DNA from: an uncultured Bdellovibrionales bacterium
GTDB taxonomy: Bacteria; Bdellovibrionota_C; UBA2361; CAIXSY01
DNA: 64,000 nt
Assembly: GCA_964510065.1 (NCBI GenBank)
Contig: CAZEAC010000008.1
Span: 9,007-73,006, forward strand
Direction of reading: 5' to 3'
Position numbers and translations under genes: made by a program. Within the stretch, counting starts at the first letter, position 1. Each line of letters starts with the position of its first letter. The notes below the pieces were generated by a model that made no database searches, was not told where the DNA came from, and worked only from the letters and a program-made list of their open reading frames with translations. Shown piece after piece: positions 1,726-58,068 of this stretch.

Positions 1726-1748
1726 AATCCTCGTAACAATGGGACTAT

Positions 1749-1787: not shown

Positions 1788-1958
1788 ATAACTATTAATT
1801 ATGGTGAGAAGACCATAACTCCATGAAACGGCGAAATTAATTTGGGTAGTCTTAGCCTACAAATCTCACCAGGGTTCGTCACGAGATGAGTGAGGTGCCC
1901 GTAAATCCGATGGTTAGGCCATGATATATTGTTGAAGCTCGGGTGTACCCTGGACTTC

Positions 1959-6928: not shown

Positions 6929-8101
6929 ATGGAAAGAATGAATCTCAAAGAATTTATACTGCATCTTTGCCTCGCGGCACTCGTCGTAAGCTGCATTGAA
7001 CTTCCGGCATTAGTAAACACAGATCTCTTTGCCTACTACAGTGCTTCAAAAGTCGTGACCAGTGGTGAGAACCCCTATGTCACAGAACCTCTTCTCACTT
7101 TTCAAAAAGAGCTAAAATCAGGACAGCATGAAGCCTTCCGAGTCTGGAACCCTCCAACGGTATTTGGCCTCTTTATTCCGCTTTCGCTTCTTGGACCTGA
7201 GAACGCTGTAAGAATTTGGTTCGGACTATCGCTGCTCGGTCTCACACTATCAGCGAATATTTGGTGGTGCATGTTGGGGCAAAAGTCGTCTCGGCTATTA
7301 CTAGAAGTAAGCTCGGTGCTGCTCTTTCTGCCCGCGCTACTTGCGCTTAGGCTGTGCCAGTTGAATGCCGTTTTACTGCTATTTTTCGTGCTTGGACTAC
7401 TATTTCTCCAAAAGGAACGCTTCTACTTTTCAGGCTTACTCCTTGGCATACTCTTCATAAAACCTCACGCATTCTGGCTTCCTTGCGTCGTCGCGAGCTT
7501 TCTTGCCGCTCGTGCCTTACGTTGGCAGTTTTTCCTGGGTGCTATCAGCGCCGCCGCAATATTCTCGCTTCCAGCACTACTATTTCGCCAAAGCGTATGG
7601 CTCGACTGGATTCACACTCCACGCCCGCCTGTCGACAACATCGCTTCAAGTTTGGTTGGCATCGCACGGCTTACCCTATCGCGCTCTGGCGAGCTTCCGC
7701 CGCTCTGGCCGGGCTGGCTAATTCCCGGCCTTGCGCTTCTGCTGCTAGGAATCTTTCTCCTTCGCTCAAATGGCGAAGCCTCGTTTGGAAAAGCTATTAG
7801 TATCGCGGCAATTCTAAGCCCGATTGCGATGCCTTACGGCTTTTTTAATGATCAGCTCATCGCCGTGCTTGGCCAGTGCTATCTGCTTCAACGAATCTTC
7901 AACAAGCAACGCTCAGCTATCGACTACATGATGCTTGCTGCTCTTGTACTGCTTCAGATCAGCACTCTTCTGTTTGCAGCCTTCGTAGCGCTTGATCATC
8001 GAACCTTTTGGTATCCGATTGGGCTGCTATGCATTTTTGCTGAATTTGAGCGACGAGAAGCAAGACTAAGGCCTTGTGGCAAGCACTCGGGCAGCGCTTA
8101 A
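6929..8101 (+). CDS. DUF2029/GT87-family membrane glycosyltransferase (GT-C)
   Basis: 390 aa and polytopic. The N-terminal loop motif DLFAYYSASKVVTSGENPY (D-x-YY ... PY) is typical of the PimE-like DUF2029 family. A central K/R-rich loop block is shared with the paralogs. Confidence 0.6.
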   Translation: MERMNLKEFILHLCLAALVVSCIELPALVNTDLFAYYSASKVVTSGENPYVTEPLLTFQKELKSGQHEAFRVWNPPTVFGLFIPLSLLGPENAVRIWFGLSLLGLTLSANIWWCMLGQKSSRLLLEVSSVLLFLPALLALRLCQLNAVLLLFFVLGLLFLQKERFYFSGLLLGILFIKPHAFWLPCVVASFLAARALRWQFFLGAISAAAIFSLPALLFRQSVWLDWIHTPRPPVDNIASSLVGIARLTLSRSGELPPLWPGWLIPGLALLLLGIFLLRSNGEASFGKAISIAAILSPIAMPYGFFNDQLIAVLGQCYLLQRIFNKQRSAIDYMMLAALVLLQISTLLFAAFVALDHRTFWYPIGLLCIFAEFERREARLRPCGKHSGSA

Positions 8102-10978: not shown

Positions 10979-12799
10979 CTAATCCAAAGTGCCTTTCGGG
11001 CGCTTCTGCCCCGACCATCGCGGTTGTTGTTGCTTATCAAGCCAAAAGCCGTCGAGATAAAGATAGTCAATCTCGGTACTCATGAAGCAATCATAGGCTT
11101 GAAATGGTGTGCACACAATTGGTTCACCACGAACATTAAAGGAAGTATTTACAAGCACTGAGTAACCAGTCTGTGCTTTAAAGCTTCGCAACACTCTATG
11201 CAGCAGTTTATGGCTTGCGGCCTGCACCGTTTGGACTCTTGCCGAGTAATCCCAATGAGTAACGGCCGGTATGTCACTTCTTATCTGACTTGCCGCATCA
11301 AGCAGATTCGGAGAGTCACCAGAAAGGGCTCCCTGCGCTTTTCGACGCTTCGTCTGAACCGGAACGACGAACGACATGTAGGGACTTTCCCGATCAAACT
11401 CGAAATACTCATTCACATCTTCGTACAGAACGATTGGCGCAAACGGCCTAAATGACTCCCTTCCCTTGATCTTAAGGTTCATTATTTGCTGAGTGCTTGC
11501 GAGACAGGGGTTGCCCAAAATCGACCGGGCTCCAAGCGCGCGCGGACCGAATTCCATTCGGCCATGAAAAAATCCAACAAACTGACCTCGCGCCAAAACG
11601 GTCGCAATCGTATCGGCCGCCGCATGATCGTCAAGTTCCTCGTATTGCAAATTCCGCCCGTCAAGAAACGTACGGATCTCATCTCGGCGATAAGATGGCC
11701 CCAACAAGGATCCTTGCATTCGATCAAAGCCTTGAATCGGCAAGCGCGGGATACCGCAAACATTGTGGGCAATAGCGTACGCCGCGCCAAGGGCGCTTCC
11801 CGCGTCACCCGCGGCAGGCTGAACAAATATATTCTTAAAAAGTCCCGCCTCGTAAAGCTTCCCATTGGCGACACAATTGAGAGCCACACCACCAGCAAGA
11901 CAGAGATTATCCAGCTGAGTCGCGTGCTTCACTGCTTGAGCCATCGCAAGTACGGCCATCTCTGTAAATTTTTGAATCGATGCGGCAAGATCGAGTTCTC
12001 TCGTGGTAATTTGAGATTCAGGCTGACGGGCAGGACCACCAAAAAGTCGCGCGAACTTCTCTTCGATCAATTGAGGCCGATAGTGAAACGAAAAATAATC
12101 TAAATTGAGCCGAACCGCGCCATCAAAATCTATCGATGCAACGTTATCGACGATCGCCTTCAAGAATCGCGGATTTCCATAGGGCGCGAGCCCCATGAGT
12201 TTATACTCACCGAAGTTAACCTTAAAACCGCAAAAATACGTAAATGCCGAATAGAGCAATCCTAGCGAATCCGGAAATAGCAGCTCCTTGATAATTGATA
12301 TATTTTCTTTCGTGCCGACCGCTTGAGCCGCCGATGACCATTCTCCCACACCGTCAATACTCAAAATTCCGGCACTGTCGAAACGCGATGGATAGTATGC
12401 CGCGGCCGCGTGCGCGAGGTGGTGAGGAGTAAAATATATTGGTCCTGAATATGTCTGAAGCGAGCTGCGTATAATTTCCTCGACAAATCGTTTCGTGGTC
12501 GACCACTCTGCCAAAACCGAACTGTAGAGCGACCAGCTCTTCGGCCAGTGCGCGATTACCGATTGCAACAGACGATCAAGAGTTCGCTGTGGTTTGTCAT
12601 AGTAGGCCACACAAGACAAATTTTCCGGAGTAATGTCGGCACTTTCCAAGCAGTACGTGATCGCGTTCATCGGGAAACTTGCATCGCCCTTAATTCTCGT
12701 GAATCGCTCCTCCTGCGCCGCGGCGACAATGTTTCCATCGCGAAGCAACGCCGCCGCTGAATCGTGATAAAATGCGGAGATTCCCAATACGAAAGTCAT
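10979..12799 (-). CDS. NodU/CmcH-family O-carbamoyltransferase
   Basis: The N-terminus MTFVLGISAFYHDSAAAL and HHLAHAAAAYY are diagnostic of carbamoyltransferases. The start was chosen at the internal Met that forms an ATGA overlap with the upstream SGNH gene stop (12796); the maximal ORF extends to 12862. Confidence 0.8.
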   Translation of the reverse strand: MTFVLGISAFYHDSAAALLRDGNIVAAAQEERFTRIKGDASFPMNAITYCLESADITPENLSCVAYYDKPQRTLDRLLQSVIAHWPKSWSLYSSVLAEWSTTKRFVEEIIRSSLQTYSGPIYFTPHHLAHAAAAYYPSRFDSAGILSIDGVGEWSSAAQAVGTKENISIIKELLFPDSLGLLYSAFTYFCGFKVNFGEYKLMGLAPYGNPRFLKAIVDNVASIDFDGAVRLNLDYFSFHYRPQLIEEKFARLFGGPARQPESQITTRELDLAASIQKFTEMAVLAMAQAVKHATQLDNLCLAGGVALNCVANGKLYEAGLFKNIFVQPAAGDAGSALGAAYAIAHNVCGIPRLPIQGFDRMQGSLLGPSYRRDEIRTFLDGRNLQYEELDDHAAADTIATVLARGQFVGFFHGRMEFGPRALGARSILGNPCLASTQQIMNLKIKGRESFRPFAPIVLYEDVNEYFEFDRESPYMSFVVPVQTKRRKAQGALSGDSPNLLDAASQIRSDIPAVTHWDYSARVQTVQAASHKLLHRVLRSFKAQTGYSVLVNTSFNVRGEPIVCTPFQAYDCFMSTEIDYLYLDGFWLDKQQQPRWSGQKRPKGTLD

Positions 12800-13797
12800 G
12801 GCGATTTTCCACGCGGATGATTGAGAAAAGAACAGTGCAACAAAAGCTGCTGGTGAAGCCATTCCGCCAGAAACGCGTGAGCATGCACGGTAAAATGGGG
12901 ATCGTCTTCAAAACGAAACTGCCGTCGATCGCCCATTCGCACACGACGCATGGCCGTTAGAGGGTCAGCGACAAAGATCCCTGGTCTGGCCTCAGTTAAT
13001 TTTTGAAAGGCCTTCTCATAACGCGCGCTTCCGTCTTCCAGGTAGTGATGAGGCAACGGCAACGGCATTACAATGAACGGCAGATCAGCATCGCATCGAA
13101 ACGCACGCGCCATAAGCGCACTCATAAGCTTCCAAGGAAGTCCATCCAGGCGGTCATACAATGAGTCAATCGAACAATTCGCGAAGCTGTTATAGTGCGA
13201 CTCAAGGCGGCACGATTCCCCTCCGGCATGCTCAACTGATTCTCGCGGGACCGGATTGTTTCGCAGGATTAACTCGCCGCTTTCCGACGGCACGAAAACC
13301 GGTTTGGGCCGCAACATCATTCGATGTTCAGCATAGTCCCAGCTTGGACGATGCGTGCACAAATTCCTATAGATATTTTCTACACAGACTCCCCATATAA
13401 CGAGATCCGGCCGATAACGCATGGCGAACTGCTCGAAAATAAGCGCCTGCTGATCCGTTCCGCTCGCATTGAGCCCGAAGTTCATTATCTCGCAGGTCGG
13501 CAAACGCACCTGTAGAAGATCGCTAAATCGCGAGCCGTTATCGACGCCGTCGCCGGCGCTGTAAGAATCTCCTAGCACCACAATGCGCCAGCCTTTAGAA
13601 GGGGCCAGATCAAAATCTCTTTCTTCGCGAATTCCCTCAGAATTCGTGACAAAGCGATGATACGTATTTCCAAGACAAAGCCGAGCCCTATAGTTCGGCA
13701 ATGCCCACCAGCCTATTTCAGGATGATAGGTAAATGGCTGTCGCCGATAATCAGTCTTATAAACTTGAAATGAAGCGCGAGTACGAAACATGGTCAA
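12796..13797 (-). CDS. SGNH/GDSL hydrolase (canonical GDS block)
   Basis: 333 aa with VLGDSYSAGDG as the block I motif. It is translationally coupled to the downstream carbamoyltransferase. Confidence 0.6.
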   Translation of the reverse strand: MTMFRTRASFQVYKTDYRRQPFTYHPEIGWWALPNYRARLCLGNTYHRFVTNSEGIREERDFDLAPSKGWRIVVLGDSYSAGDGVDNGSRFSDLLQVRLPTCEIMNFGLNASGTDQQALIFEQFAMRYRPDLVIWGVCVENIYRNLCTHRPSWDYAEHRMMLRPKPVFVPSESGELILRNNPVPRESVEHAGGESCRLESHYNSFANCSIDSLYDRLDGLPWKLMSALMARAFRCDADLPFIVMPLPLPHHYLEDGSARYEKAFQKLTEARPGIFVADPLTAMRRVRMGDRRQFRFEDDPHFTVHAHAFLAEWLHQQLLLHCSFLNHPRGKSP

Positions 13798-20467: not shown

Positions 20468-22384
20468 ATGTGCGGAATTGTGGGCGTATGCGCGGCGAAC
20501 CTTTTTTCAATCGGCGCGCACGCGCGCGCTCGCGCAATGTCGGCGCTCAGCCATCGAGGTCCCGACGCCCAGGGGTTATATGCTTACGATGGTAAAGTCT
20601 CGACTTCATCTGATGATGCGGGTCTTAACCCCTGTAAAGTTTTCTTGGGGCACAAACGGCTTTCGATACTCGATCTCTCACCGCGCTCGCATCAACCGAT
20701 GCGCAGCGCGGATAATCTGGCGGTGCTCGCATTCAACGGCGAGATCTACAATTTCAAAGAGCTGCGTGGCGAGCTTCAAACGCTTGGAGTAGCTTTTCAA
20801 ACGACAGGAGATAGCGAAGTCATTGTCGAAGGATATCGTCGATGGGGAACCGGGTTATTTTCAAAACTCGTCGGAATGTTTGCTCTGGCACTCCTCGACC
20901 TTCAAAGGCAATCGCTCTTTCTTGTAAGAGATCATTTTGGAATCAAGCCGCTCTATTATCGACTCGGCAATCACAAGCTCTATTTTGCATCAGAAATTGC
21001 GCCGCTTCTTGCGATTGCGGAACATACTCCGGCCATAAATCAGGCCATGACGTATTCTTATTTAGTATCGGGCATCACTGATAATTCGGCGGAGACATTT
21101 TACGATCAAATTCATCAGCTGTCAGCGGCACACTACGTGGAGCATTCTCTTGTCGCCACTCACCTCTCCAATATCACTCCAATTCGCTACTGGTACCCGC
21201 CGCAATCGATTAATAGTGATATTACGTATGAGGAGGCGAGCGCACAGATACGCGAACTATTTCTTCGTAGCGTCGCGTTGCATCTTCGAAGTGACGTCTC
21301 GGTTGGGGTACTCTTGTCGGGAGGAATCGATTCTTCGGCAATTGCATGCAGCATCAAGCATCTTGTTCCAGAAGCGCCGATCGAGACGTTCAGTTTTATT
21401 TCCGATAATCAATCGATCAATGAAGAGCGCTGGATTGATATTGTAAGTGTCGCCACCGGCTACCGATCGCATAAAGTCTCATTCAATTTTCGGGCAAATA
21501 GCGACGATTTGAACGCCTTTATTCGCGCGCAAGGAGAACCAATTCCCACCTCGACGGTACTCGCACAGTATGCGGTTTTTCAAGCGGTTTCTAAAGCAGG
21601 TTATAAGGTCGTGCTTGACGGGCAAGGGGCGGATGAATTGTTCGCCGGCTATATTCCATTTATTCTTAATCAGCTTATTACCCTATTGCACGACGGCAAC
21701 TTCGGGCGCGGATTCAGTTTGCTCTATTCGCTGCTCGCGGGAAAAACGGCGCTTTCAAATCCATTCGTCAAAATTATCGAGAAGTGCACTAGAGTAATTT
21801 CAAGGAGAATCCACGGACATTCATCAATCAGTTCGATTTTCGATAAGAAACAGCTCTCTTTGCTTGGATGCACGGCGCCCGCATTCGCCTCACCGGCGCT
21901 TCCCCTGCGTCAGGCTCTCAACGCGGCGTTCTACTCGACACGTCTACCCATGCTCCTAAAATGGGAAGATCGTAGCTCAATGGCCCATTCAGTCGAAAGT
22001 CGTGTGCCATTTCTGTTACCTGAGCTGGTCGCCTTTGTACAAACGCTTCCGACAGACTACTTTGTTGACGATCGTGGCACCACAAAGTCGGTGTTCCGAG
22101 ACGCCATGAGAGGCATTTTGCCCGATCAAACTCGCGCCAGACGAGACAAGCTCGGATTTGCCACGCCCGAGGCTCAATGGCTTCGCGCGAATCGGGCTGC
22201 GGTATGCGCAACGCTCAGAAGATTCGATCCACTGCATGCTCCTTTGCTCGAGCCAACACGCCTTGCCTCGTTTATCAGCGAATTTGAACGCGGTGCCACA
22301 CCGTCCAATGAAAGTGTATGGAGACTGTTTTGTTTGGCGGCTTGGGTTGAACAGTGCGTTCTCAGAAAATCGTTGGCTGCTTAG
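20468..22384 (+). CDS. asparagine synthase-like glutamine amidotransferase (AsnB family)
   Basis: MCGIVGV provides the N-terminal nucleophile Cys of a class II GATase. SGGIDSS is the PP-loop. The start is set at the ATG that gives Met-Cys; the track TTG at 20462 was rejected. Confidence 0.85.
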   Translation: MCGIVGVCAANLFSIGAHARARAMSALSHRGPDAQGLYAYDGKVSTSSDDAGLNPCKVFLGHKRLSILDLSPRSHQPMRSADNLAVLAFNGEIYNFKELRGELQTLGVAFQTTGDSEVIVEGYRRWGTGLFSKLVGMFALALLDLQRQSLFLVRDHFGIKPLYYRLGNHKLYFASEIAPLLAIAEHTPAINQAMTYSYLVSGITDNSAETFYDQIHQLSAAHYVEHSLVATHLSNITPIRYWYPPQSINSDITYEEASAQIRELFLRSVALHLRSDVSVGVLLSGGIDSSAIACSIKHLVPEAPIETFSFISDNQSINEERWIDIVSVATGYRSHKVSFNFRANSDDLNAFIRAQGEPIPTSTVLAQYAVFQAVSKAGYKVVLDGQGADELFAGYIPFILNQLITLLHDGNFGRGFSLLYSLLAGKTALSNPFVKIIEKCTRVISRRIHGHSSISSIFDKKQLSLLGCTAPAFASPALPLRQALNAAFYSTRLPMLLKWEDRSSMAHSVESRVPFLLPELVAFVQTLPTDYFVDDRGTTKSVFRDAMRGILPDQTRARRDKLGFATPEAQWLRANRAAVCATLRRFDPLHAPLLEPTRLASFISEFERGATPSNESVWRLFCLAAWVEQCVLRKSLAA

Positions 22385-29711: not shown

Positions 29712-30458
29712 TCAATTGCTCCCACGTTGAGCTACTACTATAAATTCCGGAATGGCAGTAACCGGCTGCGTAGGATCCTTAAGAGATGGAGTCATATAAT
29801 CTATTAGTTCCCCGACACTGTTGAGCAAAAAAGTTGTCGCCCCCCGAAACAATCGTCGAATGCGCGATTGACTTAAGCCGCGATACGCATAGTGCGCCAA
29901 CAGGAAAAATACACCTGAAACTGTCCCTCGTGTCGGAAAAATTTTAATTTCGATGAAGTTTGCGGAGCGGCTAAATTGTAACGGCAACCCGGTCTGCGTC
30001 CAGCGCCAATGATCGTGCGGACTCGGATGCCATGGAAAACACCCATGGGTCGAAAGAATTACTCGCCCTCCTGGACGCAATACTCTATATAGTTCCTTGA
30101 GCACCATATCAGGATTATGAACGTGCTCGAGCACCGAAAAACAGATCACCAAGTCTTGAGATTTATCACGAATCGCGAGCGCTTCCGCGGTACACACTAC
30201 GTCCGTATTCATTCCAGGCGCGCAAATCTCGGTTCCGATGTACCTGCGAGCAAACTTCGCGAGTATCGGATAGAATGGTTTTGAGCCACAGCCGACGTCC
30301 AAGACGTCCAATAAGTTCGACCTATCCGTAATTTCATTTTGCAAAAGGACGCGAAGCGTTCGCACGAAGGCACTCGAACCCAAATAATCGGGGTGAGTTC
30401 GCGAGGGAGCTCGTCGTTCTCTCAATGGCCATGTTACGTCAAGCGCTTCGTCATTCAT
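29712..30458 (-). CDS. class I SAM-dependent methyltransferase, translationally coupled to wzt (candidate chain-terminating methyltransferase)
   Basis: VLDVGCGSKP is motif I and LRPGGRVILS is also present. The start overlaps the wzt stop by 4 bp. Confidence 0.65.
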   Translation of the reverse strand: MNDEALDVTWPLRERRAPSRTHPDYLGSSAFVRTLRVLLQNEITDRSNLLDVLDVGCGSKPFYPILAKFARRYIGTEICAPGMNTDVVCTAEALAIRDKSQDLVICFSVLEHVHNPDMVLKELYRVLRPGGRVILSTHGCFPWHPSPHDHWRWTQTGLPLQFSRSANFIEIKIFPTRGTVSGVFFLLAHYAYRGLSQSRIRRLFRGATTFLLNSVGELIDYMTPSLKDPTQPVTAIPEFIVVAQRGSN

Positions 30459-31696
30459 GCAGTTCTAAAATCAAACTCACACCGATATACACCCGGATAA
30501 TCCACATCGTCGCGCACATCAACTGCTTCGGCGGCACATTGCAGGGTCATCGCCTCTTCAATAAAATCGAGAATCTCACTTCGGTCGATACCAAGATAGA
30601 ATTGAAGTCTGTATAATGAGGGTCTCAAAAGCAGTTTACGCAGACAGATTACATAAGTTCGCGTTTCACCGGCCTTTAGAGACACGGTAACGCCCCGCAT
30701 TCCTGAATTGGCGTCGACTACTCGATTCCAAAAAGCATCGTAAAGCACCAGCGATACGTTAACGTTATCTACATTTTCACGCGCGCGCACCTGAAACGAA
30801 ACTTCAAGCGAATCGCCGGAACGAAACAACTTCGCATTTCCGTCACCGGCTATTCGCAAAGTAGCTTCTTCAAAATACACGCGACCGCTACCGATTCGTT
30901 TTGCCGCGGAAAGATCTTTGTGCCAGGTTGTTTCGCTTAGTGAGGAAGAAAGATAATACTGAATCGCATATTCTATACTATCGTCACACACCACCGCCCC
31001 TTGCTGCAAGACGATTCCACGCGTGCACAGCGATCGCAGCACTCCCAAATTATGGCTTACAAAAATGACCGTTCGACCACCGTGCGCCAGATCATTCATG
31101 TGCCTTAAACACTTCCGTTGAAACTCCGCGTCACCAACCGCGAGCACCTCATCGACAAATATGATCTCAGCTTGTAAGTGCGCGGCAACGGCGAACGCAA
31201 GGCGCACGTACATTCCCGAGGAGTAATGCTTCACCGGAGTATCGATAAAATTGGAAATCCCCGAAAATTCAACAATTTGATCAAACTGCTGAATAATTTC
31301 ATGCCGTTTCATTCCGAGAATAGTTCCACTTAGATATATATTTTCTTTTCCCGTAAGCTCAGGATGAAATCCGGTGCCGACTTCCAACAGGCTCGCGCAG
31401 CGTCCACGCATAATTGCACGACCGGCGGTGGGTTCGGTAATTCGTGACAGTACCTTGAGCAGCGTGCTTTTTCCCGCTCCGTTTGATCCGACCAAACCGA
31501 CTATTTCTCCGGGAAAAATTTCAAAGGAAACATCCTTCAGTGCGTCTATCGTTGCCCGAGGCGCCGCCTGTTCAACTCGGCTCCCTCCCGCCGTCACCAC
31601 CCGCACCAATGAATCTCGCAAAGTACGATAGCGATTATCGTCTATGACATGGCGATACGATTTACAGATATTTTCAACGGAAATGACCGACTCCAC
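30455..31696 (-). CDS. wzt: ABC transporter ATP-binding protein Wzt with C-terminal carbohydrate-binding extension
   Basis: Walker A GSNGAGKST, signature YSSGMYVRLAFA and Walker B IIFVDEVLAVGD are all present. At 413 aa the protein has an extra ~160-aa C-terminal beta-rich domain. Confidence 0.85.
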   Translation of the reverse strand: MESVISVENICKSYRHVIDDNRYRTLRDSLVRVVTAGGSRVEQAAPRATIDALKDVSFEIFPGEIVGLVGSNGAGKSTLLKVLSRITEPTAGRAIMRGRCASLLEVGTGFHPELTGKENIYLSGTILGMKRHEIIQQFDQIVEFSGISNFIDTPVKHYSSGMYVRLAFAVAAHLQAEIIFVDEVLAVGDAEFQRKCLRHMNDLAHGGRTVIFVSHNLGVLRSLCTRGIVLQQGAVVCDDSIEYAIQYYLSSSLSETTWHKDLSAAKRIGSGRVYFEEATLRIAGDGNAKLFRSGDSLEVSFQVRARENVDNVNVSLVLYDAFWNRVVDANSGMRGVTVSLKAGETRTYVICLRKLLLRPSLYRLQFYLGIDRSEILDFIEEAMTLQCAAEAVDVRDDVDYPGVYRCEFDFRTA

Positions 31697-31741
31697 GCGT
31701 TCTCAGTTCCTTTGTTTATTCCTTTTTATGCACCGTATTCG

Positions 31742-32563
31742 CTATGCCAAATCTGCCAAGTGTCTCTCGTTCTGACGAAAATAAGCAATTCCCGCCACGC
31801 ACAGTAGTAGCGAACTCACTCCTGATAGTCCCATCGCAAGGCACGAAGGTTGAGGCATTCCTAAAAGGACCCAACGAGAACTTTCAATGATGGTCACTAG
31901 CGGATTAAGCGCTAAGTAACGTTGAAAGAATCCTGGAAAGAGCGAGCTTGCGTAAAACACAGGCGAGGCAAATAATCCAATTTGTAAAAAAAACGGCACT
32001 ATATGGCGAATGTCTCTATATTGAGCGCTCAATCCCGCGACAAAAGTCGAAATACCGACAGTAGTGAGGAACAACGCACACAACACCAACACAATAAAGA
32101 GCGATCCAACATTAAAGGCAATTCCATAAGACCACGCCATCGCCATAAATAGGACGAATAAAAGTATAAAATCCACGGAACTCGCCAAAATAGCCGCGAG
32201 CGGAATTAGAAGCCGCGGAAAATAAACCTTGGTCATTATTGGCGCATCCGTCACGACTGACTGCATTGCGCCCTGTACCGATGCGGCAAAAAAATTCCAG
32301 ACGATCAACCCAAGCAGCGCAAAGATCGGATACGGCACATTATCTATCCGAAAAGCATCCACTCTACTGAAGGCTGCATTAAGTATGAGAATCATCAGCA
32401 GCGGCTGTACCACGACCCAAGCAATTCCGATAACAGTTTGACGATAGCGAACTTTAAGGTACCGTAAAGTAAGCAGCCATAGAAGATCGCGGAATTCAAA
32501 GAGTTCTCTCAGCCTGAGTGCTTGCCAGCCATTTTTTTTTTCAATAACGATCGGTGTAATCAT
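31742..32563 (-). CDS. wzm: ABC-2 type polysaccharide export permease Wzm
   Basis: 273 aa with 6 TM segments. The N-terminal ...FRDLLWLLTLRYLKVRYRQTVIGIAW is the typical ABC-2 Wzm/KpsM start. It lies immediately upstream of wzt. Confidence 0.8.
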   Translation of the reverse strand: MITPIVIEKKNGWQALRLRELFEFRDLLWLLTLRYLKVRYRQTVIGIAWVVVQPLLMILILNAAFSRVDAFRIDNVPYPIFALLGLIVWNFFAASVQGAMQSVVTDAPIMTKVYFPRLLIPLAAILASSVDFILLFVLFMAMAWSYGIAFNVGSLFIVLVLCALFLTTVGISTFVAGLSAQYRDIRHIVPFFLQIGLFASPVFYASSLFPGFFQRYLALNPLVTIIESSRWVLLGMPQPSCLAMGLSGVSSLLLCVAGIAYFRQNERHLADLA

Positions 32564-36182: not shown

Positions 36183-37949
36183 GTGTATTCGATTGGCATA
36201 AATGAAGGAATCAACGGCTCAGTCGTCGTCACCAAAGACGAACAGACCATATTTGCGCTTCAAGAAGAACGCATAAACCGCTTGAAGGAATTTCATGGTT
36301 TTCCCGTGAAAGCACTGAGCTTTGCGCTGCAGTATTTAAACCTAGATCCAAGCCAAGTTGAGTTTGTATGCCTCTCTAACTTATCGAGCTCCGTGCGCGA
36401 CCGAGCCACGTTTCAAAGACAATATGCTCAACGCGCGCGATCTTTCTCTCAGCGACTTCTTTCGGGAGATTTCACCCTCTACCGTGATTACGTGTGGCCG
36501 TTTCTCCCGCCGCTATTAGTCGAGTATGCTCGAAAGGTCGGCTCACATCGAGCGAACAGGATCGTTGAAAACACGGTTCGTGAGCATGGCTTCGCAGCTT
36601 CGCGAATCAAGCGCTGCCATCATCACCTCGCCCATGCGTCAGCCGCCTATTTCGCCTGCAGAAAAGATCCGATAACGCCGCACCTTGTACTTACCTTGGA
36701 TGGCGGCGGTGATTCGGATTGCGCGCATGTGTACCTCGCGTCAAAGGGTACTCTGAAATTGCTCGACTCAACACCCGCCGGCAATTCTATTGGAAACATC
36801 TATTCATGTGTCACTCAGGCATTAGGAATGATTCCACATGAGCATGAATACAAGCTTATGGGACTCGCAGGCTATGTCGACCCACGACATGCCACAACAT
36901 TACGCGCACATTTCGAGCGTTATCTCGAAATTGACCGTGCTCGTCCCGCGCGCTTCAAACGTAAGACATGGAGACTCACCTCACATTTACAACCTGTTTT
37001 GTTCAAGCAGGTATATTCGCAACGCTTTGATAATATATGCGGAGGATTGCAAGCGTTTACCGAAGCGCTTCTCCACGATTGGGTCACGGGGCTGATCGCG
37101 CACACCGGCGTAAGGAATGTTGTGGCCGCGGGGGGAGTCTTCATGAATGTCAAAGCGAACAAAATAATCGCCGAACTCCCCGAAATTGAACATTTTGACG
37201 TCTTTCCCTCGTGTGGCGATGAAAGTCTTGCGTTCGGATCGAATTGGTATCAACTTTCAACCGCGAAGCCCGATCTCCAGGATCGGATCAAGCTGCCAAG
37301 CCTTTATCTTGGGCCGGATGCATCTTTTGATATCGCCACAGCGCTCGAGCTTGCTCGCGCGGCAAACTTCCACATTGAGCCGCTGCACGACACCAACGAA
37401 GTCGTCGCGGCACTCCTTGACCAGGGGCAAATAGTAGCTCGTTGCTGCGGCAGAATGGAATTTGGCGCTCGCGCGCTTGGAAATCGATCAATTTTGGCCG
37501 ATCCCTCCAACACCGGCGTCATTTCCCGAATTAATCGAATGATCAAATGTCGTGACTTCTGGATGCCGTTTGCTCCCGCAGTTCTTTATGAATGCGTGAA
37601 TGATTACATACGGATTCCCAAATCACTGCCGCAAAAGATGCTGTCGCCCTACATGATGCATGCTTTTGATACAACAAGACAAAAGAACGACCTCTGTGCC
37701 GCACTTCATCCCTATGACAATACTGCCCGCGCACAAATAGTGGTAAAGGAACAGAATCCAAAATTTCACGATCTGATTGAACGTTTTCGGCGAAAGAGAG
37801 GAATCGGAGCACTCCTTAACACGTCATTTAATATTCATGGCTCTCCGATTGTCATGGGAGCGGTCGACGCGATGGATGTATTTATTCGATCGGACCTAAA
37901 CTATTTGCTCATCGACGATGTCTTAATTAGCAAAAGCACGACGCATTAG
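36183..37949 (+). CDS. NodU/CmcH-family O-carbamoyltransferase (second copy)
   Basis: The N-terminal YSIGINEGINGSVV, HHLAHASAAYF and the C-terminal ...LNTSFNIHGSPIV block are all present. The start is GTG. Confidence 0.8.
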   Translation: MYSIGINEGINGSVVVTKDEQTIFALQEERINRLKEFHGFPVKALSFALQYLNLDPSQVEFVCLSNLSSSVRDRATFQRQYAQRARSFSQRLLSGDFTLYRDYVWPFLPPLLVEYARKVGSHRANRIVENTVREHGFAASRIKRCHHHLAHASAAYFACRKDPITPHLVLTLDGGGDSDCAHVYLASKGTLKLLDSTPAGNSIGNIYSCVTQALGMIPHEHEYKLMGLAGYVDPRHATTLRAHFERYLEIDRARPARFKRKTWRLTSHLQPVLFKQVYSQRFDNICGGLQAFTEALLHDWVTGLIAHTGVRNVVAAGGVFMNVKANKIIAELPEIEHFDVFPSCGDESLAFGSNWYQLSTAKPDLQDRIKLPSLYLGPDASFDIATALELARAANFHIEPLHDTNEVVAALLDQGQIVARCCGRMEFGARALGNRSILADPSNTGVISRINRMIKCRDFWMPFAPAVLYECVNDYIRIPKSLPQKMLSPYMMHAFDTTRQKNDLCAALHPYDNTARAQIVVKEQNPKFHDLIERFRRKRGIGALLNTSFNIHGSPIVMGAVDAMDVFIRSDLNYLLIDDVLISKSTTH

Positions 37950-45299: not shown

Positions 45300-46046
45300 G
45301 TGAGCACGCCGACGACGCCGTTAATTCAGCAGCTACTGCAGCAGTATCTGCCTCGCGAGATATCGACACAATGTAGCGCCAGCGAGCAGCTAAAAAAAAT
45401 TACCGCACATTGCCGAAACCCTTCGGCGATACTTGATCTGGGTTGCGGCCGCGGTGATTCGCAACATCTCTTTACTGCTCTAGTTCCCGCAACACACTGG
45501 ATTGGTCTCGATATCAGAGATTCACCGGAGGTCCGGACGCGCACCACGACGTCGGGACCACGTGCCATTTGTAGTTTTGATGGGATTCGTGTTCCATTCC
45601 AGGATAACAGCTTTGATCTAGTGTATAGCTCTCAAGTTTTCGAGCACGTACGTCACCCAGAGCCGCTATTACATGAAGTGCGTCGAGTACTCCGCCCAGG
45701 TGGTCTTTTTTTCGGCTCAACTTCGAGTCTTGAGCCGTTTCACTCGTATAGCTATTGGAACTACTCACCCTTCGGTTTCATTGAGATATTGAAGAGTAGC
45801 GGCCTCACTCCCCTCGAGATCCGTCCGGGAATTGACGCGCTTACCCTCATTTGCAGGCAAATTTTAAAGCGTCCGCGCTTCATGGAACGCTATTTTCGCA
45901 GTGAGTCGCCACTCCATCGCCTTATCAATTTGTACAGCCTGATTAAACGTTTGCAGCACGATCAAATAAATGCGTTAAAATTACAATTTGCGGGCACCTT
46001 CTTCTTTATTGCTCAGGTCGACAACAGTTCGTTAAAGACATCGTGA
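45300..46046 (+). CDS. class I SAM-dependent methyltransferase
   Basis: ILDLGCGRGDS is motif I. VLRPGGLFFGST is also present. The start is GTG. Confidence 0.6.
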   Translation: MSTPTTPLIQQLLQQYLPREISTQCSASEQLKKITAHCRNPSAILDLGCGRGDSQHLFTALVPATHWIGLDIRDSPEVRTRTTTSGPRAICSFDGIRVPFQDNSFDLVYSSQVFEHVRHPEPLLHEVRRVLRPGGLFFGSTSSLEPFHSYSYWNYSPFGFIEILKSSGLTPLEIRPGIDALTLICRQILKRPRFMERYFRSESPLHRLINLYSLIKRLQHDQINALKLQFAGTFFFIAQVDNSSLKTS

Positions 46047-50419: not shown

Positions 50420-52369
50420 ATGTGCGGAATCTGCGGAATATTCGGCCGCTCTCACGAAGCAGCCGTGCAATCAATGAAGAACGCCCTTCATCATCGCGGC
50501 CCCGATGATAGCGGCCACTATTCGGATGAAAAAGTCAGCCTAGGCTTTGCGCGACTTGCCATAATCGATCTTAGTCCTCACGCTCATCAACCGCTGTTCA
50601 GCGCGGGTCGGGATATCATTATCGTGTATAATGGTGAGCTATATAATTATCAAAGCGAACGTAAAATCCTTGAGGCACGCGGACATACATTTACTTCAAC
50701 GTCCGATACTGAAGTTGTTTTGCGGCTTTACGAAGAGTATGGCGATGAGTTTCTTAAACGGCTTCGCGGCATGTTCGCGCTTGCGATCTACGATCGGCGC
50801 GGCGGACGCGGCCATGAACGGCTACTTCTCGCGCGCGATCCGCTCGGCATCAAGCCGCTTCTCTATTCTCGACTTTCCGGGGCAGTGGTATTTGCTTCAG
50901 AGATAAAAGCATTACTGGCGAGTGGTCTGGTAGCACGAGAGCTCGACGCCAACGCATTGCGGCTTCTCCTCACCTTCGGATCGGTGCAGCAACCCGCCAC
51001 CATCATTAAGAATGTTGCGATGCTCCCGCCCGGGCATGTTTTGGTCGCGACTTCCGGAGACGAATTTACGATTAAACCCTACTGGCATCTTCGCGAAGCA
51101 TACGACAGCACCATCGCCGGCCTCGACTATCAAGAACAGGTTCAGTATCTCAAAAGCGCACTCGAGGAATCAGTACGATTACATCTTATTGGAGATAGGC
51201 CGACCGGAGCTTTCTTGAGCGGCGGCGTCGATTCTTCACTGCTCGTTGCAATCATGTCAAAGTTGTCATCTCGTAAAGTTTCAACGTTTTCGGTTGGATT
51301 TTCGGATGAGGAGCCCACACTCGACGAAAGTGGCGATGCTGCCCGCACCGCGAATTTTATCGGCACTGATCATTCACATGTAGTGGTAACAGCCGATCAA
51401 GTTCGAGATAGATTTTCGCACGTCGTGTCCGCACTTGACCAACCTTCAGTTGATGGAGTCAATTCATATTTTGTATCTCAAGCCGCAAGCTCAAAAGTTA
51501 CCGTCGCTCTCTCGGGTACGGGGAGCGACGAACTCTTTGCGGGCTATCCTTGGTTCCTCGACATGCTGCACTTTAATGAGAACAGATTACGCCGTTATAG
51601 TGCATACTTATTAAGCAAGGCATTCGCATTTGGAGAGGACTTGAAAGGCACGATATTTCGTGCGAAGGCACGTGATTCCGCGTTATTACGCTCACTGCGA
51701 CGGCAAAGTGACTTCCTCAGCCGATTTGCAAGTAACTATTTGATATTTGGCGCGCAAGGCACCGCGACAATACTTGCACCGCGCTTTGCTCGGAAAGTAA
51801 TCGAAGAGAGGGACGACCTGATCCCGAACGATCTCCTCGCCGAGCGAAGCACTGTTTCTCGAGTGAGCGGTTTGTGTCTCGGTGGATATCTTCGAAATCA
51901 GCTGCTTCGAGATATTGACGCCGCCTCGATGGCGCATTCGCTCGAAGTAAGGGTTCCTTATCTTGATATTCGAGTGGTAAGCGCCGCGCTTTCGTTACCC
52001 GACGACTCAAAGATTTCACGCTTTACCGAACATGCGGCACGCTTTGGGAGCTATGCGGAAACGGGCACGAAGCGAATTCTATTTGATGTCGGCAAGGGAT
52101 TGCTCCCTCAATGGCTCGAGACCGCACCGAAGAGAGGATTTAGCATGCCGATCGGCACGTGGCTTCGTAGATCGCTCAAGACATTTATGCGCGACGTACT
52201 TTCGGTGGATTCCATTCGAGCTAGCGGAATCTTCAATGTTGAAGAGACGCAGCGGGTACTCGACGGATTCCTTGCGGGGTCGGCACATTGGACAAGGCCT
52301 TGGCTACTGCTTATGGTTGAATGCTGGGCACGCGAAGTATTGGCTCCAACGAAGACTTCTATTCAATAG
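50420..52369 (+). CDS. asparagine synthase-like glutamine amidotransferase (AsnB family, second copy)
   Basis: MCGICGIF provides the N-terminal Cys. SGGVDSS is the PP-loop. The protein is 649 aa. Confidence 0.85.
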   Translation: MCGICGIFGRSHEAAVQSMKNALHHRGPDDSGHYSDEKVSLGFARLAIIDLSPHAHQPLFSAGRDIIIVYNGELYNYQSERKILEARGHTFTSTSDTEVVLRLYEEYGDEFLKRLRGMFALAIYDRRGGRGHERLLLARDPLGIKPLLYSRLSGAVVFASEIKALLASGLVARELDANALRLLLTFGSVQQPATIIKNVAMLPPGHVLVATSGDEFTIKPYWHLREAYDSTIAGLDYQEQVQYLKSALEESVRLHLIGDRPTGAFLSGGVDSSLLVAIMSKLSSRKVSTFSVGFSDEEPTLDESGDAARTANFIGTDHSHVVVTADQVRDRFSHVVSALDQPSVDGVNSYFVSQAASSKVTVALSGTGSDELFAGYPWFLDMLHFNENRLRRYSAYLLSKAFAFGEDLKGTIFRAKARDSALLRSLRRQSDFLSRFASNYLIFGAQGTATILAPRFARKVIEERDDLIPNDLLAERSTVSRVSGLCLGGYLRNQLLRDIDAASMAHSLEVRVPYLDIRVVSAALSLPDDSKISRFTEHAARFGSYAETGTKRILFDVGKGLLPQWLETAPKRGFSMPIGTWLRRSLKTFMRDVLSVDSIRASGIFNVEETQRVLDGFLAGSAHWTRPWLLLMVECWAREVLAPTKTSIQ

Positions 52370-52373
52370 TAAC

Positions 52374-53657
52374 ATGATAGCCGACCAATTCCAGGATCTT
52401 TACGAAGGCGCCCCGAAAATTCTCTTTATCGGATTGCCGCAGAGCAGTCACACACATGGGTGGATAAATCTTTTGAGTGAAAGCCGATTCAATGTACGGC
52501 TATTCGGAGTTCCGGGCGGAGTGCCACCTAGAGATTGGTGGGTGCCCAGTTATGTATCCCGTTGCGCGCCATGGAAATTACGTTCCTCGACGCATGTCCA
52601 CTATCTCTATAAGGGCGTTTCTGGCGTTACGCGCTATTGTTTCGAGCGAGTGATTAAACGCCTCTCAAAGTCAGCGGCATTTCCCGTTTCTGCGATAGCT
52701 CCTTTCCACGCCGAGCGACTCTTTGAAAGCGCACTTTTGGAGCTGATTGAGAGATGGCGTCCAGATATTGTGCACACACTCGGAGTCTTTGACGGTCAGG
52801 GTGGTGAACTCTTTTATCGCTTGCGCGAACGTTACCCGGTTCTCCGTGAACCAATTTGGGTTGCGCAGGTGCGAGGTGGTTCGGACGTTGTTTCTCGCAT
52901 GGAAACGGGTTCGACGGCGCCGCTTACACAGATACTCTTGGCCAGCGATCAAATATTGACCGACAATGTGGCCAACATCGAGCTATTCAAAAGGCAAGGA
53001 ATAAGCGCTCAGAAGATTGCTTCGGTCTGCCCTGTGCCAGGCTCAGGCGGCCTTGAGCTTGATGACGCCTCGTCTCGAATGCCCGCGTCAAAGCGCGAAC
53101 GACTAATACTTTATCCAAGAGCATATGAATCTCGCTGGTCAAGCTCCGCCCCGGTAATTGAAGCGCTGCGCCTGGCGTGGTCGCGGATCAAGCCTTGCAA
53201 AATTGTAATGACCGCGATCGATGCGACAACGAAAGGCCACATCGCAAAACTGCCGCATGAAATTCGATCTTCTCTCGAGTTGCATAGTCGGTTACCGCGG
53301 ACCCAGCTACTCGAACTATTTTCTCGTGCCCGCGTGGCGCTTCTTCCCTCAAAAGTCGATGGTGTCCCGAATGCGCTTTACGAATCTATGGCACATGGTG
53401 CATTTCCGATTGTATCTCCACTCGAGACGATAGCTACCGTGGTTAAAGAGCAGCACAATGTACTATATGCGAATAATTGCGATCATCAGGCCCTCGCGGA
53501 CGCGCTCGCTATCGCTATGCAGAACGATTTACTGGTTGATCAGGCCACGTTGGGCAATTTCCAATTAGTTTCTCGAATAGCTAATCGTAAAACGATCAAA
53601 ACTGATATCGTCGCTTTTTATCAACGCCTGAGCGCATCGAAGCGCGGCAAGCCCTAG
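52374..53657 (+). CDS. GT4-like glycosyltransferase, paralog of 14008-15213
   Basis: The start ATG lies 4 bp after the AsnB stop and is in frame with the longer track ORF 52032-53657, whose 5' extension overlaps asnB and was rejected. The shared N-terminal THTHGWINLL and C-terminal GT4 motif LPSKVDGVPNALYESMAHGAFPIVSP are present. Confidence 0.65.
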   Translation: MIADQFQDLYEGAPKILFIGLPQSSHTHGWINLLSESRFNVRLFGVPGGVPPRDWWVPSYVSRCAPWKLRSSTHVHYLYKGVSGVTRYCFERVIKRLSKSAAFPVSAIAPFHAERLFESALLELIERWRPDIVHTLGVFDGQGGELFYRLRERYPVLREPIWVAQVRGGSDVVSRMETGSTAPLTQILLASDQILTDNVANIELFKRQGISAQKIASVCPVPGSGGLELDDASSRMPASKRERLILYPRAYESRWSSSAPVIEALRLAWSRIKPCKIVMTAIDATTKGHIAKLPHEIRSSLELHSRLPRTQLLELFSRARVALLPSKVDGVPNALYESMAHGAFPIVSPLETIATVVKEQHNVLYANNCDHQALADALAIAMQNDLLVDQATLGNFQLVSRIANRKTIKTDIVAFYQRLSASKRGKP

Positions 53658-53835
53658 AGCGTGTTCTGAACTTTTGTCCTGCTGCGAGCCCCAATTCGCA
53701 TTAAACTGCTTCGTTGGCCTAGTCGCGAGTACTCGCAAGCCTGATAGGCTTGCTCCGCGCTCGCTCCGGCGGCCGCCTCGCATTTTAACGCGACTTGGTG
53801 CTCTCGCGACGGACAAAAGTTCAGAACACGCTCTA
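53655..53835. repeat. MITE-like element / structured intergenic module bounded by 25-bp perfect terminal inverted repeats
   Basis: TAGAGCGTGTTCTGAACTTTTGTCC at 53655-53679 and its exact reverse complement at 53811-53835. The interior contains the palindrome GCGAGTACTCGC and the hairpin GCAAGCC-tgata-GGCTTGC. The terminal TA of each repeat forms part of the stop codon of the flanking convergent gene. Confidence 0.5.
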
Positions 53836-54969
53836 ATGTTTGCCAATCATTTTTTCAATCACGGGCACAAGTTCACGCCCAATTCGCTCGGCAAGTAGCT
53901 GATTGCCTTTATCGCCCACATGAACCGAATCGATAAAGAGCTCGTAATCTTTCGGAAGTGAATCGAATACATCACTTATATTACGATAGTAGAAGTTTTC
54001 GCCCCGGACGGCGCGCAAGGCTTGGTCAATTGCATGATACGCCTGCATGGCCGGAGAGTTGGCTTCTCTTTTTATAAATTTTGATTCACGCACCGTCAGC
54101 GGCTTGTTTCCGACCTGTCCGTGAGGCTGAAGAAAAAAGAAGTAAGGGACATCTTTCTCCGCAAGAGCGGATATCGCCAGCTTTACATTTTTTGCCAAAC
54201 GATACCCGATCGTTTCGGGGGTAATTGATGCTTCAGCCGGAGCGAGATCCCTCGGCTCGGGAAATCCAAGCGCAAGATAGAGTTGCCTCAGCAGTTCCAA
54301 ATAGTAGTCATCGTAGAAGGCACGAAACCAAAGCACATTTCGACGTTGATGCCCCCAATACACGTCATTACACCCCGACAACGATACAATCAGATCAGGA
54401 TTTCTCTCGGATAGATAATTTTCAATAAGTATTCTTTCTTGAGTCGAAGCCCATGCCGGGTTGGCAATGGTAAACACATTGAGCAACACCTCAGAACTTC
54501 GCACGCTGACTCTTTCTCTCAAATAGCGCTCAAGAAATGCTCCGACAGTTTGCTCATTTCCGGGAGCGCCGGAGCCGTATGCGACAGAGCCGCCAACCAG
54601 GAAAACACGAAATTCGTTCGCCTGCTTCCTTTCGGTAAATTCCCTGGTATCTCTCGCCATTGATGAGTTAATAGTGGCATTTGCATGCACTCCCGGCTCG
54701 GGCGCGCTTCCAACAAATGGCGCGGGCACATTAGGGACCGCCCACGAGATCGTTGCTATATCAGGAGGCGTGCGATATGCCGGTGTCACATTATGAAAAT
54801 TTTCATTGAGCGTCGGAAGCAAGCTGCCAAGCGTTTGATGCACCTGGGCCGAGGTAATGAATGACCGCGATTCAACGAGTACGGAACGCTGCCCTACATA
54901 AAAGGCCAGGGCCATCGCTCCTCCCTGGAGCAACAGAAACAACAGCGCGCCAAACATGCGAGATTTCAT
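53833..54969 (-). CDS. membrane-anchored SGNH-like hydrolase (GGS variant), paralog family
   Basis: An N-terminal signal/TM segment is followed by FLVGGSVAYGSG. It is 378 aa. Confidence 0.5.
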   Translation of the reverse strand: MKSRMFGALLFLLLQGGAMALAFYVGQRSVLVESRSFITSAQVHQTLGSLLPTLNENFHNVTPAYRTPPDIATISWAVPNVPAPFVGSAPEPGVHANATINSSMARDTREFTERKQANEFRVFLVGGSVAYGSGAPGNEQTVGAFLERYLRERVSVRSSEVLLNVFTIANPAWASTQERILIENYLSERNPDLIVSLSGCNDVYWGHQRRNVLWFRAFYDDYYLELLRQLYLALGFPEPRDLAPAEASITPETIGYRLAKNVKLAISALAEKDVPYFFFLQPHGQVGNKPLTVRESKFIKREANSPAMQAYHAIDQALRAVRGENFYYRNISDVFDSLPKDYELFIDSVHVGDKGNQLLAERIGRELVPVIEKMIGKH

Positions 54970-56792: not shown

Positions 56793-58068
56793 GAGCGACT
56801 TCCCCTCAAAGACATCCGACGCTAATAAACGACTGAGCGGCAAAAAATTGATCCTGGCCACACTTGCGGGAATCATTGGCATAATGATCGGCAGTTGGTT
56901 ATTATCGAATACTCCGCTCTACGCTCATCAAGGCACACGAATTCAAATTTTTGATTTTGCCTACTACGTTTCGATGATCTCGTTGTTTTGGAGCCGCCCA
57001 AGTGTCGACATATATTCGTTCAGCGACAATCAGCTGATGTTGCAGCAGCTCTTTGATTTTGTTCCCGCGACTGTCATGCCTTTCGGTATAAGTCCCTCAA
57101 GTGTTTTGATCTTGGCGCCCTGGGCTGGTCTTGCCCGCTGGAGCCTTGATTTCAGCTTTCTCATGTGGCTTGGACTATCTTGTGCGGCACTCGCGACAGC
57201 AATTCTCATTGTGATAGACACCTGGCCGCGGCAATTTCTTCGCGATATTCCGGCGATCACACTTCTCGTGGTGGTCCTTGCTTCAGACTCCTTTTTAGGA
57301 GCTCTGCTTCGAGGGCAAACCTCCGCTCTTGCCCTCGCGGGACTTCTCTATCTTACCTATTCTTGCTTCAGCGGGGGCACAAAGCCAAGCGGCTGGATTC
57401 GCGACGCGGGTATACTTGCCTTGCTCTCGATAAAGCTGCCCTATTTTATCATAGCGAGTCTCACTCTGCTCATCTTTCGACGCCATAGAGCCGCCCTTAC
57501 CGGCACTGCCATCGCTGCATGCGCAGTAGCGTTCGCCCTCGCGCTATCGCCCCCCGGAACATTTCGGCATTTTATCGGGACACTCAGCCTCTTCTCAAGT
57601 CAACAGATTCCACCGCACTATGCAGGCGCTTTCTCTTTCTCGGAGATTAGCACTTTAGCAACCGCGCTCCCCGACTCACTTTCACGCGCGCTTCGAGCCA
57701 CCCTTTCGCTTGTCCTGGCCGCAGTCTGTTTGGGCGCGGTAGTGATTCGAAAGTTCAAAGCTACACCAATCGGGCCGAGCGAAATAATTTTGATCGTTGG
57801 CAGTTATTTGCTTTTCTCGCCGTACGTCGGGGCCTATGAGGACATTTTACTTCTTCTACCGGCGCTTTTCATTTTTCGTGAACGCGATCGTACGTGGAAT
57901 ATCAAAGTAATCGTGACATTGATTCTCAGTGCGATCTATTTAAATCGCGGCATATTAGATCTCGGCACGCTCCAGTGGACCATGTGCCCGGTCAAATTCG
58001 CGATATTTGCCTGTCTCTTGCTTGTCGCGCGCGGCACTTCACGAGCCTCCGTGACCAGGCTAGCGTAA
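56785..58068 (+). CDS. DUF2029/GT87-family membrane glycosyltransferase (GT-C)
   Basis: 427 aa. The first loop reads FDFAYYVSMISLFWSRPSVDIY. The central block ...SGGTKPSGWIRDAGILALLSIKLPYFI is shared with the paralogs. Confidence 0.55.
   Translation: MPKSDFPSKTSDANKRLSGKKLILATLAGIIGIMIGSWLLSNTPLYAHQGTRIQIFDFAYYVSMISLFWSRPSVDIYSFSDNQLMLQQLFDFVPATVMPFGISPSSVLILAPWAGLARWSLDFSFLMWLGLSCAALATAILIVIDTWPRQFLRDIPAITLLVVVLASDSFLGALLRGQTSALALAGLLYLTYSCFSGGTKPSGWIRDAGILALLSIKLPYFIIASLTLLIFRRHRAALTGTAIAACAVAFALALSPPGTFRHFIGTLSLFSSQQIPPHYAGAFSFSEISTLATALPDSLSRALRATLSLVLAAVCLGAVVIRKFKATPIGPSEIILIVGSYLLFSPYVGAYEDILLLLPALFIFRERDRTWNIKVIVTLILSAIYLNRGILDLGTLQWTMCPVKFAIFACLLLVARGTSRASVTRLA

Follow-up and report, generated by a model that had tools for sequence, protein, structure and literature searches.

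[quoted passage not shown] The label IS427-like for the parent rests upon size, duplication and ends. The element conforms to the working definition of a bacterial MITE, in that it is small, possesses terminal inverted repeats (TIRs) and a target-site duplication, lacks a transposase, occurs in dispersed copies and has IS-related ends. It represents a new MITE family within a well-known kind of element. The features of the locus are as follows:

52032 to 53657, plus strand: family-1 glycosyltransferase gene (upstream flank), open reading frame (ORF) as listed, with the stop TAG at 53655–53657
53655 to 53656, no strand: left TA target-site copy, the first two bases of the TAG stop of the GT gene
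53657 to 53833, no strand: MITE body of 177 bp, without a transposase, an imperfect palindrome over its full length with one stop-free frame per strand
53657 to 53679, plus strand: left terminal inverted repeat, GAGCGTGTTCTGAACTTTTGTCC, 23 nt
53725 to 53736, no strand: 12-bp palindrome GCGAGTACTCGC, read from the sequence and probably specific to this copy
53735 to 53753, no strand: apical hairpin, GCAAGCCT (53735–53742) and AGGCTTGC (53746–53753), with an 8-bp stem and a 3-nt loop
53811 to 53833, minus strand: right terminal inverted repeat, the exact complement of the left one
53834 to 53835, no strand: right TA target-site copy, its complement being the first two bases of the TAG stop of the SGNH gene
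53833 to 54969, minus strand: SGNH/GDSL hydrolase gene (convergent flank), with the stop TAG at 53833–53835

Since the GT ORF overlaps an asparagine synthase gene, its true start probably lies further downstream; the SGNH product is on record with 360 amino acids, which would put its start at about 54915.

The most conspicuous part of the element is a pair of perfect 25-nt inverted repeats, TAGAGCGTGTTCTGAACTTTTGTCC at 53655–53679 and its exact reverse complement at 53811–53835, with 131 nt between the arms. The sequence confirmed these repeats, which the earlier note had described as exact over 25 bp and separated by about 131 bp, as well as the 12-bp palindrome that it placed between them. 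Among the local inverted repeats of the window this pair is the longest; from shuffles of the window 0 matches to the 25-nt motif are expected, the shuffled versions never containing it. Because TA is itself palindromic, the target-site duplication is inseparable from the inverted repeat in this copy, and the TIRs are perfect over 23 nt, or 25 nt counting the TA. The inverted repeat extends imperfectly to 34 nt (53646–53844, 91%). The nine nucleotides outside each TA are partly complementary (6/9, p about 0.01), which the MITE reading does not account for.

The interior is itself an imperfect palindrome, and alignment of the element with its own reverse complement shows 70% identity across 179 nt. 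As both arms and interior are palindromic, the whole segment folds into one long hairpin. For the 199-nt segment a single hairpin is predicted with a dG of -111.9 kcal/mol on the plus strand and -119.9 on the minus strand, compared with about -62 and -67, respectively, for dinucleotide shuffles (z = -12.3 and -12.8). A z of about -12 on both strands bears out the structured nature that had been ascribed to the segment. Its apex coincides with the symmetry centre of the element and is the hairpin at 53735–53753 noticed earlier, the stem of which measures 8 bp rather than the 7 bp first given. At 177 bp the element lies below the size of about 300 bp used for MITEs. Its open frames comprise only 59–60 codons and gave no family match.

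Each of the two flanking TAG stops consists of TA from the duplicated target and the terminal G of the element. The earlier suggestion that the repeat termini supply both stop codons is thus correct in that the outer triplets are the stops; it does not hold that the element carries them, the TA being duplicated target. Excision of 53657–53833 plus one TA (read as TA/GAGCG...CGCTC/TA) leaves GGCAAGCCCTAATGTTTGCC, in which the plus strand gene ends ...Gly-Lys-Pro-TAA and the minus strand gene ...Gly-Lys-His-TAG, that is, with the same residues as now. A target-site duplication, which had been proposed as a check, is therefore present: TA stands on both sides, an empty site can be reconstructed, both ORFs are restored upon excision, and the IS relatives are likewise flanked by TA. 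The C-terminus of the SGNH protein falls in the same alignment column as that of many of 15 aligned homologues; therefore, the last codons are native and the element replaced no coding sequence.

At the remaining six convergent junctions of the window the spacers measure -36, -4, +11, +8, -34 and -9 nt. The 175-nt spacer is therefore exceptional, and the reconstructed empty site represents the local norm. At one of the six (22381–22384) the genes share 4 nt, TTAG, which mirrors the reconstructed CTAA. Among the nearest SGNH homologues (44–49% identity), all in unrelated gene contexts, no orthologous empty site was located. The closest homologues in the collections are 45% identical for the SGNH protein and about 76% for a LOG-family protein; the few named LOG-family homologues include Bdellovibrionota MAGs. 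The neighbourhood as a whole is a large, tightly packed polysaccharide-synthesis island, with genes for a Wzm/Wzt ABC transporter, GT1, GT2 and GT87 transferases, SGNH hydrolases, carbamoyltransferases, methyltransferases and two AsnB paralogues.

The ends of the element indicate its probable parentage. The terminal 18 nt, GAGCGTGTTCTGAACTTT, are identical at 17 of 18 positions, in register, to the ends of IS5-family (IS427-like) ISs of about 850 bp in Xanthomonas, Burkholderia, Ralstonia and Mycetohabitans. The probability of at least 17/18 in-register identity by chance is 8e-10 per comparison, and every IS copy inspected is flanked by TA. A BLAST search of plasmids and phages with the 199-nt query returned marginal matches only, of which the one in Mycetohabitans led to the IS ends: the match in the megaplasmid of Mycetohabitans endofungorum falls precisely on the terminus of an 848-bp element that has no annotation, its ends being CTAGAGCGTGTTATGCACTTTTCAT and ATCAAAAGTGCCTAACACGCTCTAG. 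What remains there is a decayed copy; intact relatives of this IS bear the annotation IS5-family transposase. The right end of the 848-bp element is identical to the left TIR at 18 of 23 positions in register. When the TIR alone was used against plasmids, 42 records were obtained; among the 40 listed, most lie under annotated IS5-family transposase genes, and the four TIR-matched plasmid loci inspected are all at IS ends.

The IS of Xanthomonas hortorum (pICMP7383.2) is 857 bp in length and has TA followed by GAGCGTGTTATGAACTTT at both ends, 17/18 identical to the TIR of the element. That of B. cenocepacia, on a replicon annotated as a plasmid, is also 857 bp and has the target CTAA, as does the element; the target of the X. 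hortorum and Mycetohabitans copies is CTAG. The IS of B. glumae is similar, as is the 848-bp element of Mycetohabitans. Transposases of ISs with these ends match NF033580 and possess DDE_Tnp_1 (PF01609) and DUF4096 (PF13340) domains. The TA duplication, the lengths of 848 and 857 bp and the DDE_Tnp_1 plus DUF4096 transposase place the ISs with these ends in the IS427-like group; size, duplication and ends together thus indicate an IS427-like parent for the element. The IS5/IS427-group elements captured in Paracoccus measure 832–865 bp, with 2-bp direct repeats in all but one of those listed (PMC3281130, Table 2), and IS1248 and ISPpa2 of Paracoccus belong to the same IS427-like group (PMC3281130, Table 2). 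A scan with the consensus TAGAGCGTGTTNTGAACTTT located six such IS ends in IMG/VR contigs, position 10 being variable.

What the element and the IS427-like ISs have in common is the terminal TA followed by GAGCGTGTTnTGAACTTT (17/18), the 2-bp TA duplication and a target of the CTAA/CTAG type. They differ in length, 177 bp for the element compared with about 850 bp, and the element has no transposase gene and a symmetric foldback as its interior. The interior of the element appears to be unrelated, or only marginally related, to that of the IS relatives found, the best match, to a Ralstonia IS end, showing 71% identity along 56 nt (E = 0.001, database of 22 kb). No cognate transposase was located within the 64-kb window. 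The mobilising partner would be an IS5/IS427-type transposase bounded by GAGCGTGTT... ends.

Further copies were discovered with a translation of the element as query. An exhaustive phmmer search with its 60-amino acid minus-strand frame against 1.84 billion representative proteins gave two matches, P0242 (161 amino acids, 98% identical over residues 44–103) and P0243 (162 amino acids, 91% identical over residues 107–162). The NCBI contigs that encode them measure 19,443 and 89,657 nt, the proteins of the window being from one of 89,278 nt. The flanks of P0242 and P0243 are unrelated to each other, and their tblastn matches to the window lie only inside 53655–53834. At the protein level there are therefore three copies on three contigs, possibly of different genomes. 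As read from encoded proteins and not from their DNA, at least three copies of the element appear to exist. The check for dispersed copies that had been suggested thus found none in the window and two on other NCBI contigs. This is the opposite of a single copy conserved at the same position, the observation that the earlier note had named as speaking against a mobile element. That note had proposed a MITE or other mobile module, and this is upheld by the other copies, the IS5-family ends and the TA; its size of 181 bp has to be corrected to a mobile unit of 177 bp with 23-nt TIRs.

The 177-bp boundaries are those at which similarity to P0242 and P0243 stops, together with the IS termini. Similarity starts at an Arg codon (A/GA, with A the second base of TA) and, in P0242, stops at a Leu codon (C/TA). 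The codon before the element specifies Ile here, Ala in P0242 (GCT possible) and Phe in P0243 (TTT possible), all of which can end in T. These limits and the T-ending codons show that the protein-level boundaries agree with a 177-bp unit flanked by TA. The codons at the edges of the other two copies are compatible with TA, and both would be TA-flanked as well. A 199-bp element donating the last three codons (Gly-Lys-x) of both genes was rejected, since the other copies cease to be similar at the TA; the alignment of the SGNH C-terminus with its homologues also speaks against it. Inclusion of the nine partly complementary bases outside each TA is excluded by the protein-level boundaries.

Back-translation of the few differences is informative. 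In P0243 a Ser to Tyr replacement, probably C to A at TIR position 10, would be accompanied by a change of the paired base, where the ORF ends by GAA to TAA, and a Leu to Phe replacement (position 20) would be paired with Asp to Glu at the partner, so that both TIR differences would fall at paired positions. The variant with A at position 10 that P0243 suggests, GTTATGAAC, is the one present in the IS ends. Both P0242 and P0243 have Ala where this copy has Val (GTA); the Ala codon points to GCGAGCACTCGC in the other copies instead of GCGAGTACTCGC, and because of this residue the 12-bp palindrome is probably peculiar to the present copy. The ORF of P0242 reads through the stop-free frame of the element. 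The paired TIR changes of P0243 and the stop-free frame on each strand would fit the unlikely case of selection on fold or coding capacity, as in RPE or YPAL elements.

No second copy was located within the 64-kb window by a search for the TIR with up to 3 mismatches, by sensitive blastn or by nhmmer. The exact TIR 21-mer had 0 matches in 185,579 GTDB species genomes, and the 18 matches of a TIR 18-mer in JGI metagenome contigs were all single-arm chance matches without extension. No copies of the element were found in GTDB representative genomes, JGI metagenome contigs and IMG/VR, and peptide-pattern scans of genome and viral contigs with the three-copy alignment as query gave no relatives. 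From the lack of matches in public DNA collections little can be concluded as to how many copies the source organism has. A word-index protein search with both frames of the element gave one chance match only (E = 7.6); this negative weighs little, since the same search missed P0242 and P0243, which phmmer found.

The arrangement suggests how the insertion might have taken place. A cognate, IS427-like IS would provide a DDE transposase in trans; this would recognise the 23-nt terminal repeats and insert the element at a YTAR-type target, with duplication of the central TA. Here the target would have been CTAA, the four bases at which the TAA stop of the GT gene and the TAG stop of the SGNH gene overlapped. 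With a G at either end of the element, beside the duplicated TA, both genes would have regained TAG at the same codon; neither protein would have been altered, and hence the insertion would have been tolerated. Regeneration of TAG on both strands at overlapping convergent stops would also explain why the repeat termini seem to supply both stops. A YTAR-type target would cover most TAA and TAG stops that are preceded by a pyrimidine.

Each of the two mRNAs would now possess a 3' extension able to form a hairpin about 180 nt long, the base of which would be perfectly paired over 25 bp. A perfect basal stem of 25 bp is long enough for RNase III. The hairpin may impede read-through, affect the stability of the 3' end or be cut by double-strand-specific RNases such as RNase III, the analogues being the Correia and ERIC elements (PMC2229807) and MITEPye1 (PMC11578231). 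The element may equally be a neutral passenger. It is also conceivable, although we think it unlikely, that the element is a stop-codon-seeking insertion which always regenerates TAG and which has been kept here to separate formerly overlapping convergent genes, be it as a bidirectional insulator or as an RNA-processing hairpin.

The earlier note had also suggested a bidirectional terminator or RNA-stability element, a role which the element may have. A non-mobile hairpin evolved in place, as a bidirectional terminator or an mRNA-stabilising 3' structure for both convergent genes, would agree with the position exactly between these genes and with the very stable structure predicted on both strands. 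However, this reading is already largely refuted by the other copies, which place near-identical sequence in two other contexts, and it leaves the termini equal to IS5-family IS ends. The six other convergent junctions manage without such a structure and essentially without a spacer. Perfect Watson-Crick symmetry without G-U pairs, moreover, indicates a DNA-level repeat. A consensus scan discovered no canonical intrinsic terminator on either strand of 53655–53835, and no U-tract follows the stem, the nearest T-run beginning about 20 nt past it on the plus strand. The class of intrinsic (rho-independent) terminators, defined by a short GC-rich stem and then a U-tract, was rejected for this reason. 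An origin in place is, in our opinion, highly improbable. No promoter-like site was found inside the element.

MITEs are generally thought to arise by internal deletion of a full-length IS, and the TIRs and TA flanks observed are those of ISs of about 850 bp. A relic specific to this locus, left by a full-length IS5-family IS which inserted here and then lost its interior in situ, would be in keeping with these ends. Yet a 60-codon interior, 91–98% identical, occurs at two other loci with different flanks, from which it follows that the short form itself has spread; in addition, the interior is a symmetric foldback and not IS left-end plus right-end sequence. Deletion at this site is consequently very unlikely. 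It could further be argued that the likeness to IS5 is coincidental and that we are dealing with another class of dispersed structured repeat, either REP/BIME-like and dependent upon a RAYT-type tyrosine transposase or a family of small RNA genes, since the element is palindromic throughout and either strand can fold. There is also, as an impression, a vague likeness between the N-terminal flank of P0242 (..YFITSRT..) and the N-termini of Y1 transposases; nothing was found for this flank in Pfam. REPs, though, are 20–40 nt in length and have neither flanking duplications nor 23-nt TIRs, which counts against them here, as does the 17/18 in-register identity with IS termini plus the TA flank. 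An Rfam 15 scan of 53000–54500 at permissive thresholds yielded a single match, a chance one to a snoRNA (E = 5.3) at another place in the region, so that no Rfam match lends weight to an RNA gene. We regard this last possibility as extremely improbable. An integron attC, a dif-like site and an assembly artefact were rejected upon finding arms 131 nt apart, no core-site motif, unique flanks and an imperfect interior.

If the element is accepted as an IS427-derived MITE, several known systems invite comparison. The Correia elements are not known to have a parent IS with matching ends, whereas the ends of the present element match the IS5 family. Correia ends presumably have no sequence similarity to those of the element. 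The likeness to them is architectural and the host lineage different: Correia/NEMIS elements of Neisseria are about 100–160 bp in length, compared with 177 bp, and have TIRs of 24 bp, compared with 23 bp (PMC2229807, Table 1). They have TA at the termini with a target-site duplication, as here (PMC2229807), and their transcripts fold into long stem-loops which are proposed substrates of RNase III (PMC2229807); the RNA of our element is likewise predicted to fold back. The resemblance is again architectural for ERIC/IRU and YPAL of enterobacteria and Yersinia, which are imperfect palindromes of 127–168 bp with TA termini (PMC2229807). With the RUP family, too, the likeness is one of architecture. 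ERIC TIRs are short, with about 7 bp of contiguous pairing in contrast to 23 nt in the element, and ERIC/IRU and YPAL occur in tens to hundreds of copies, where at least 3 are known for the element. MITEPye1 of Paracoccus yeei was defined by the same criteria as the element (PMC11578231), namely small size, IS-like TIRs, direct repeats, no transposase, 1–3 copies, intergenic location and a long RNA stem-loop (PMC11578231). The ends which its TIRs resemble are those of the IS1182 family and not of IS5/IS427, and its sequence is unrelated to that of the element.

These results add a previously undescribed MITE family with IS5/IS427-type ends, from an uncultivated lineage that is poorly sampled, its nearest relatives showing only 45–76% protein identity. 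No new biological question is opened by the finding, and the element is of interest mainly as a clean example of a stop-codon-neutral insertion between overlapping convergent genes. It illustrates the rule that YTAR-targeting elements ending in G can enter TAA and TAG stops without altering the proteins, even where convergent stops overlap. With the source genome in hand, strains could be told apart by means of the family, and the effects of MITEs upon the 3' ends of mRNAs could be studied in it. The long palindromes of such elements can also disturb assemblies and confuse gene callers, P0242 and P0243 being the spurious ORFs in the present case.

On each strand a single reading frame free of stop codons crosses the element from end to end (53656-53835; 59-60 codons). 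A profile of both frames was submitted to a word-index homology search, which returned a single chance match (E = 7.6). Exhaustive phmmer analysis of the same collection revealed two proteins, P0242 and P0243, encoded on other contigs and 91-98% identical to one of the element frames; negatives from the word index are therefore not to be trusted for short, unusual peptides. In P0242 the called ORF runs straight through the element copy, with an N-terminal flank of 43 amino acids (MPIPLKYFEYGSLYFITSRTEEGLPF...) and a C-terminal flank of 58, and a Pfam search of this ORF found no domain. The read-through ORF may be an artefact of gene calling, or the element may have inserted into a real gene.

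The nine nucleotides outside each TA, GGCAAGCCC (53646-53654) and ATGTTTGCC (53836-53844), are complementary at six of nine positions (p about 0.01), and the reconstructed empty site is therefore a 20-bp imperfect palindrome. Both flanking genes end in codons for a C-terminal Gly-Lys-x. The target of the IS5-family insertion sequence of X. hortorum is a perfect palindrome, GGCC-TA-GGCC. The palindromic character of the empty site could be due to chance, or could reflect a preference of the transposase for palindromic targets.

In the Ralstonia solanacearum Po82 megaplasmid (locus L026, 1503-1555), similarity between the MITE and an IS427-like IS extends past the TIR, taking in the left end of the IS and its 5' leader: 71% identity across 56 nt, with E = 0.001 for a 22-kb database. 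There is here a weak hint that the halves of the MITE derive from an IRL-side leader. A second IS, nested on the opposite strand, appears to interrupt the Ralstonia IS.

Nearly all of the window (4230-61273) is filled by a single, very large island of the polysaccharide or O-antigen type. Among its products are a Wzm/Wzt ABC exporter (30455-32563), WecB/FnlA-like sugar-nucleotide enzymes, at least four GT87-family transferases, four SGNH/GDSL hydrolases, two carbamoyltransferases, two asparagine-synthase paralogues and many methyltransferases. The window has seven convergent gene pairs; in four of them the 3' ends overlap (4 to 36 nt), and in another two the genes lie just 8-11 nt apart. The overlaps are:

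8066-8101
22381-22384
46013-46046
58060-58068

Evidently, transcription termination in the island does not depend on intergenic hairpins.

A 58-nt inverted repeat (78% identity), its arms 26 kb apart, does not mark the boundary of a mobile element, since each arm is internal to a carbamoyltransferase gene:

10979-12862, minus strand, carbamoyltransferase gene holding the arm at 11506-11563
36183-37949, plus strand, carbamoyltransferase gene holding the arm at 37449-37506

The repeat is thus paralogous coding sequence in opposite orientation.

At the start of the window (142-1790) lies a toxin-antitoxin pair of the hipBA type:

142-1473, minus strand, HipA with HipA_C and Couple_hipA domains
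1474-1725, minus strand, HTH protein of 83 amino acids, preceding HipA
1746-1766 and 1770-1790, inverted repeat upstream of the pair, with 21-nt arms (TATTGTCATTAGACTATAATT and AACTATCGTCTAGTGACAATA) and a 3-nt spacer

This repeat (1746-1790) looks like the operator-promoter.
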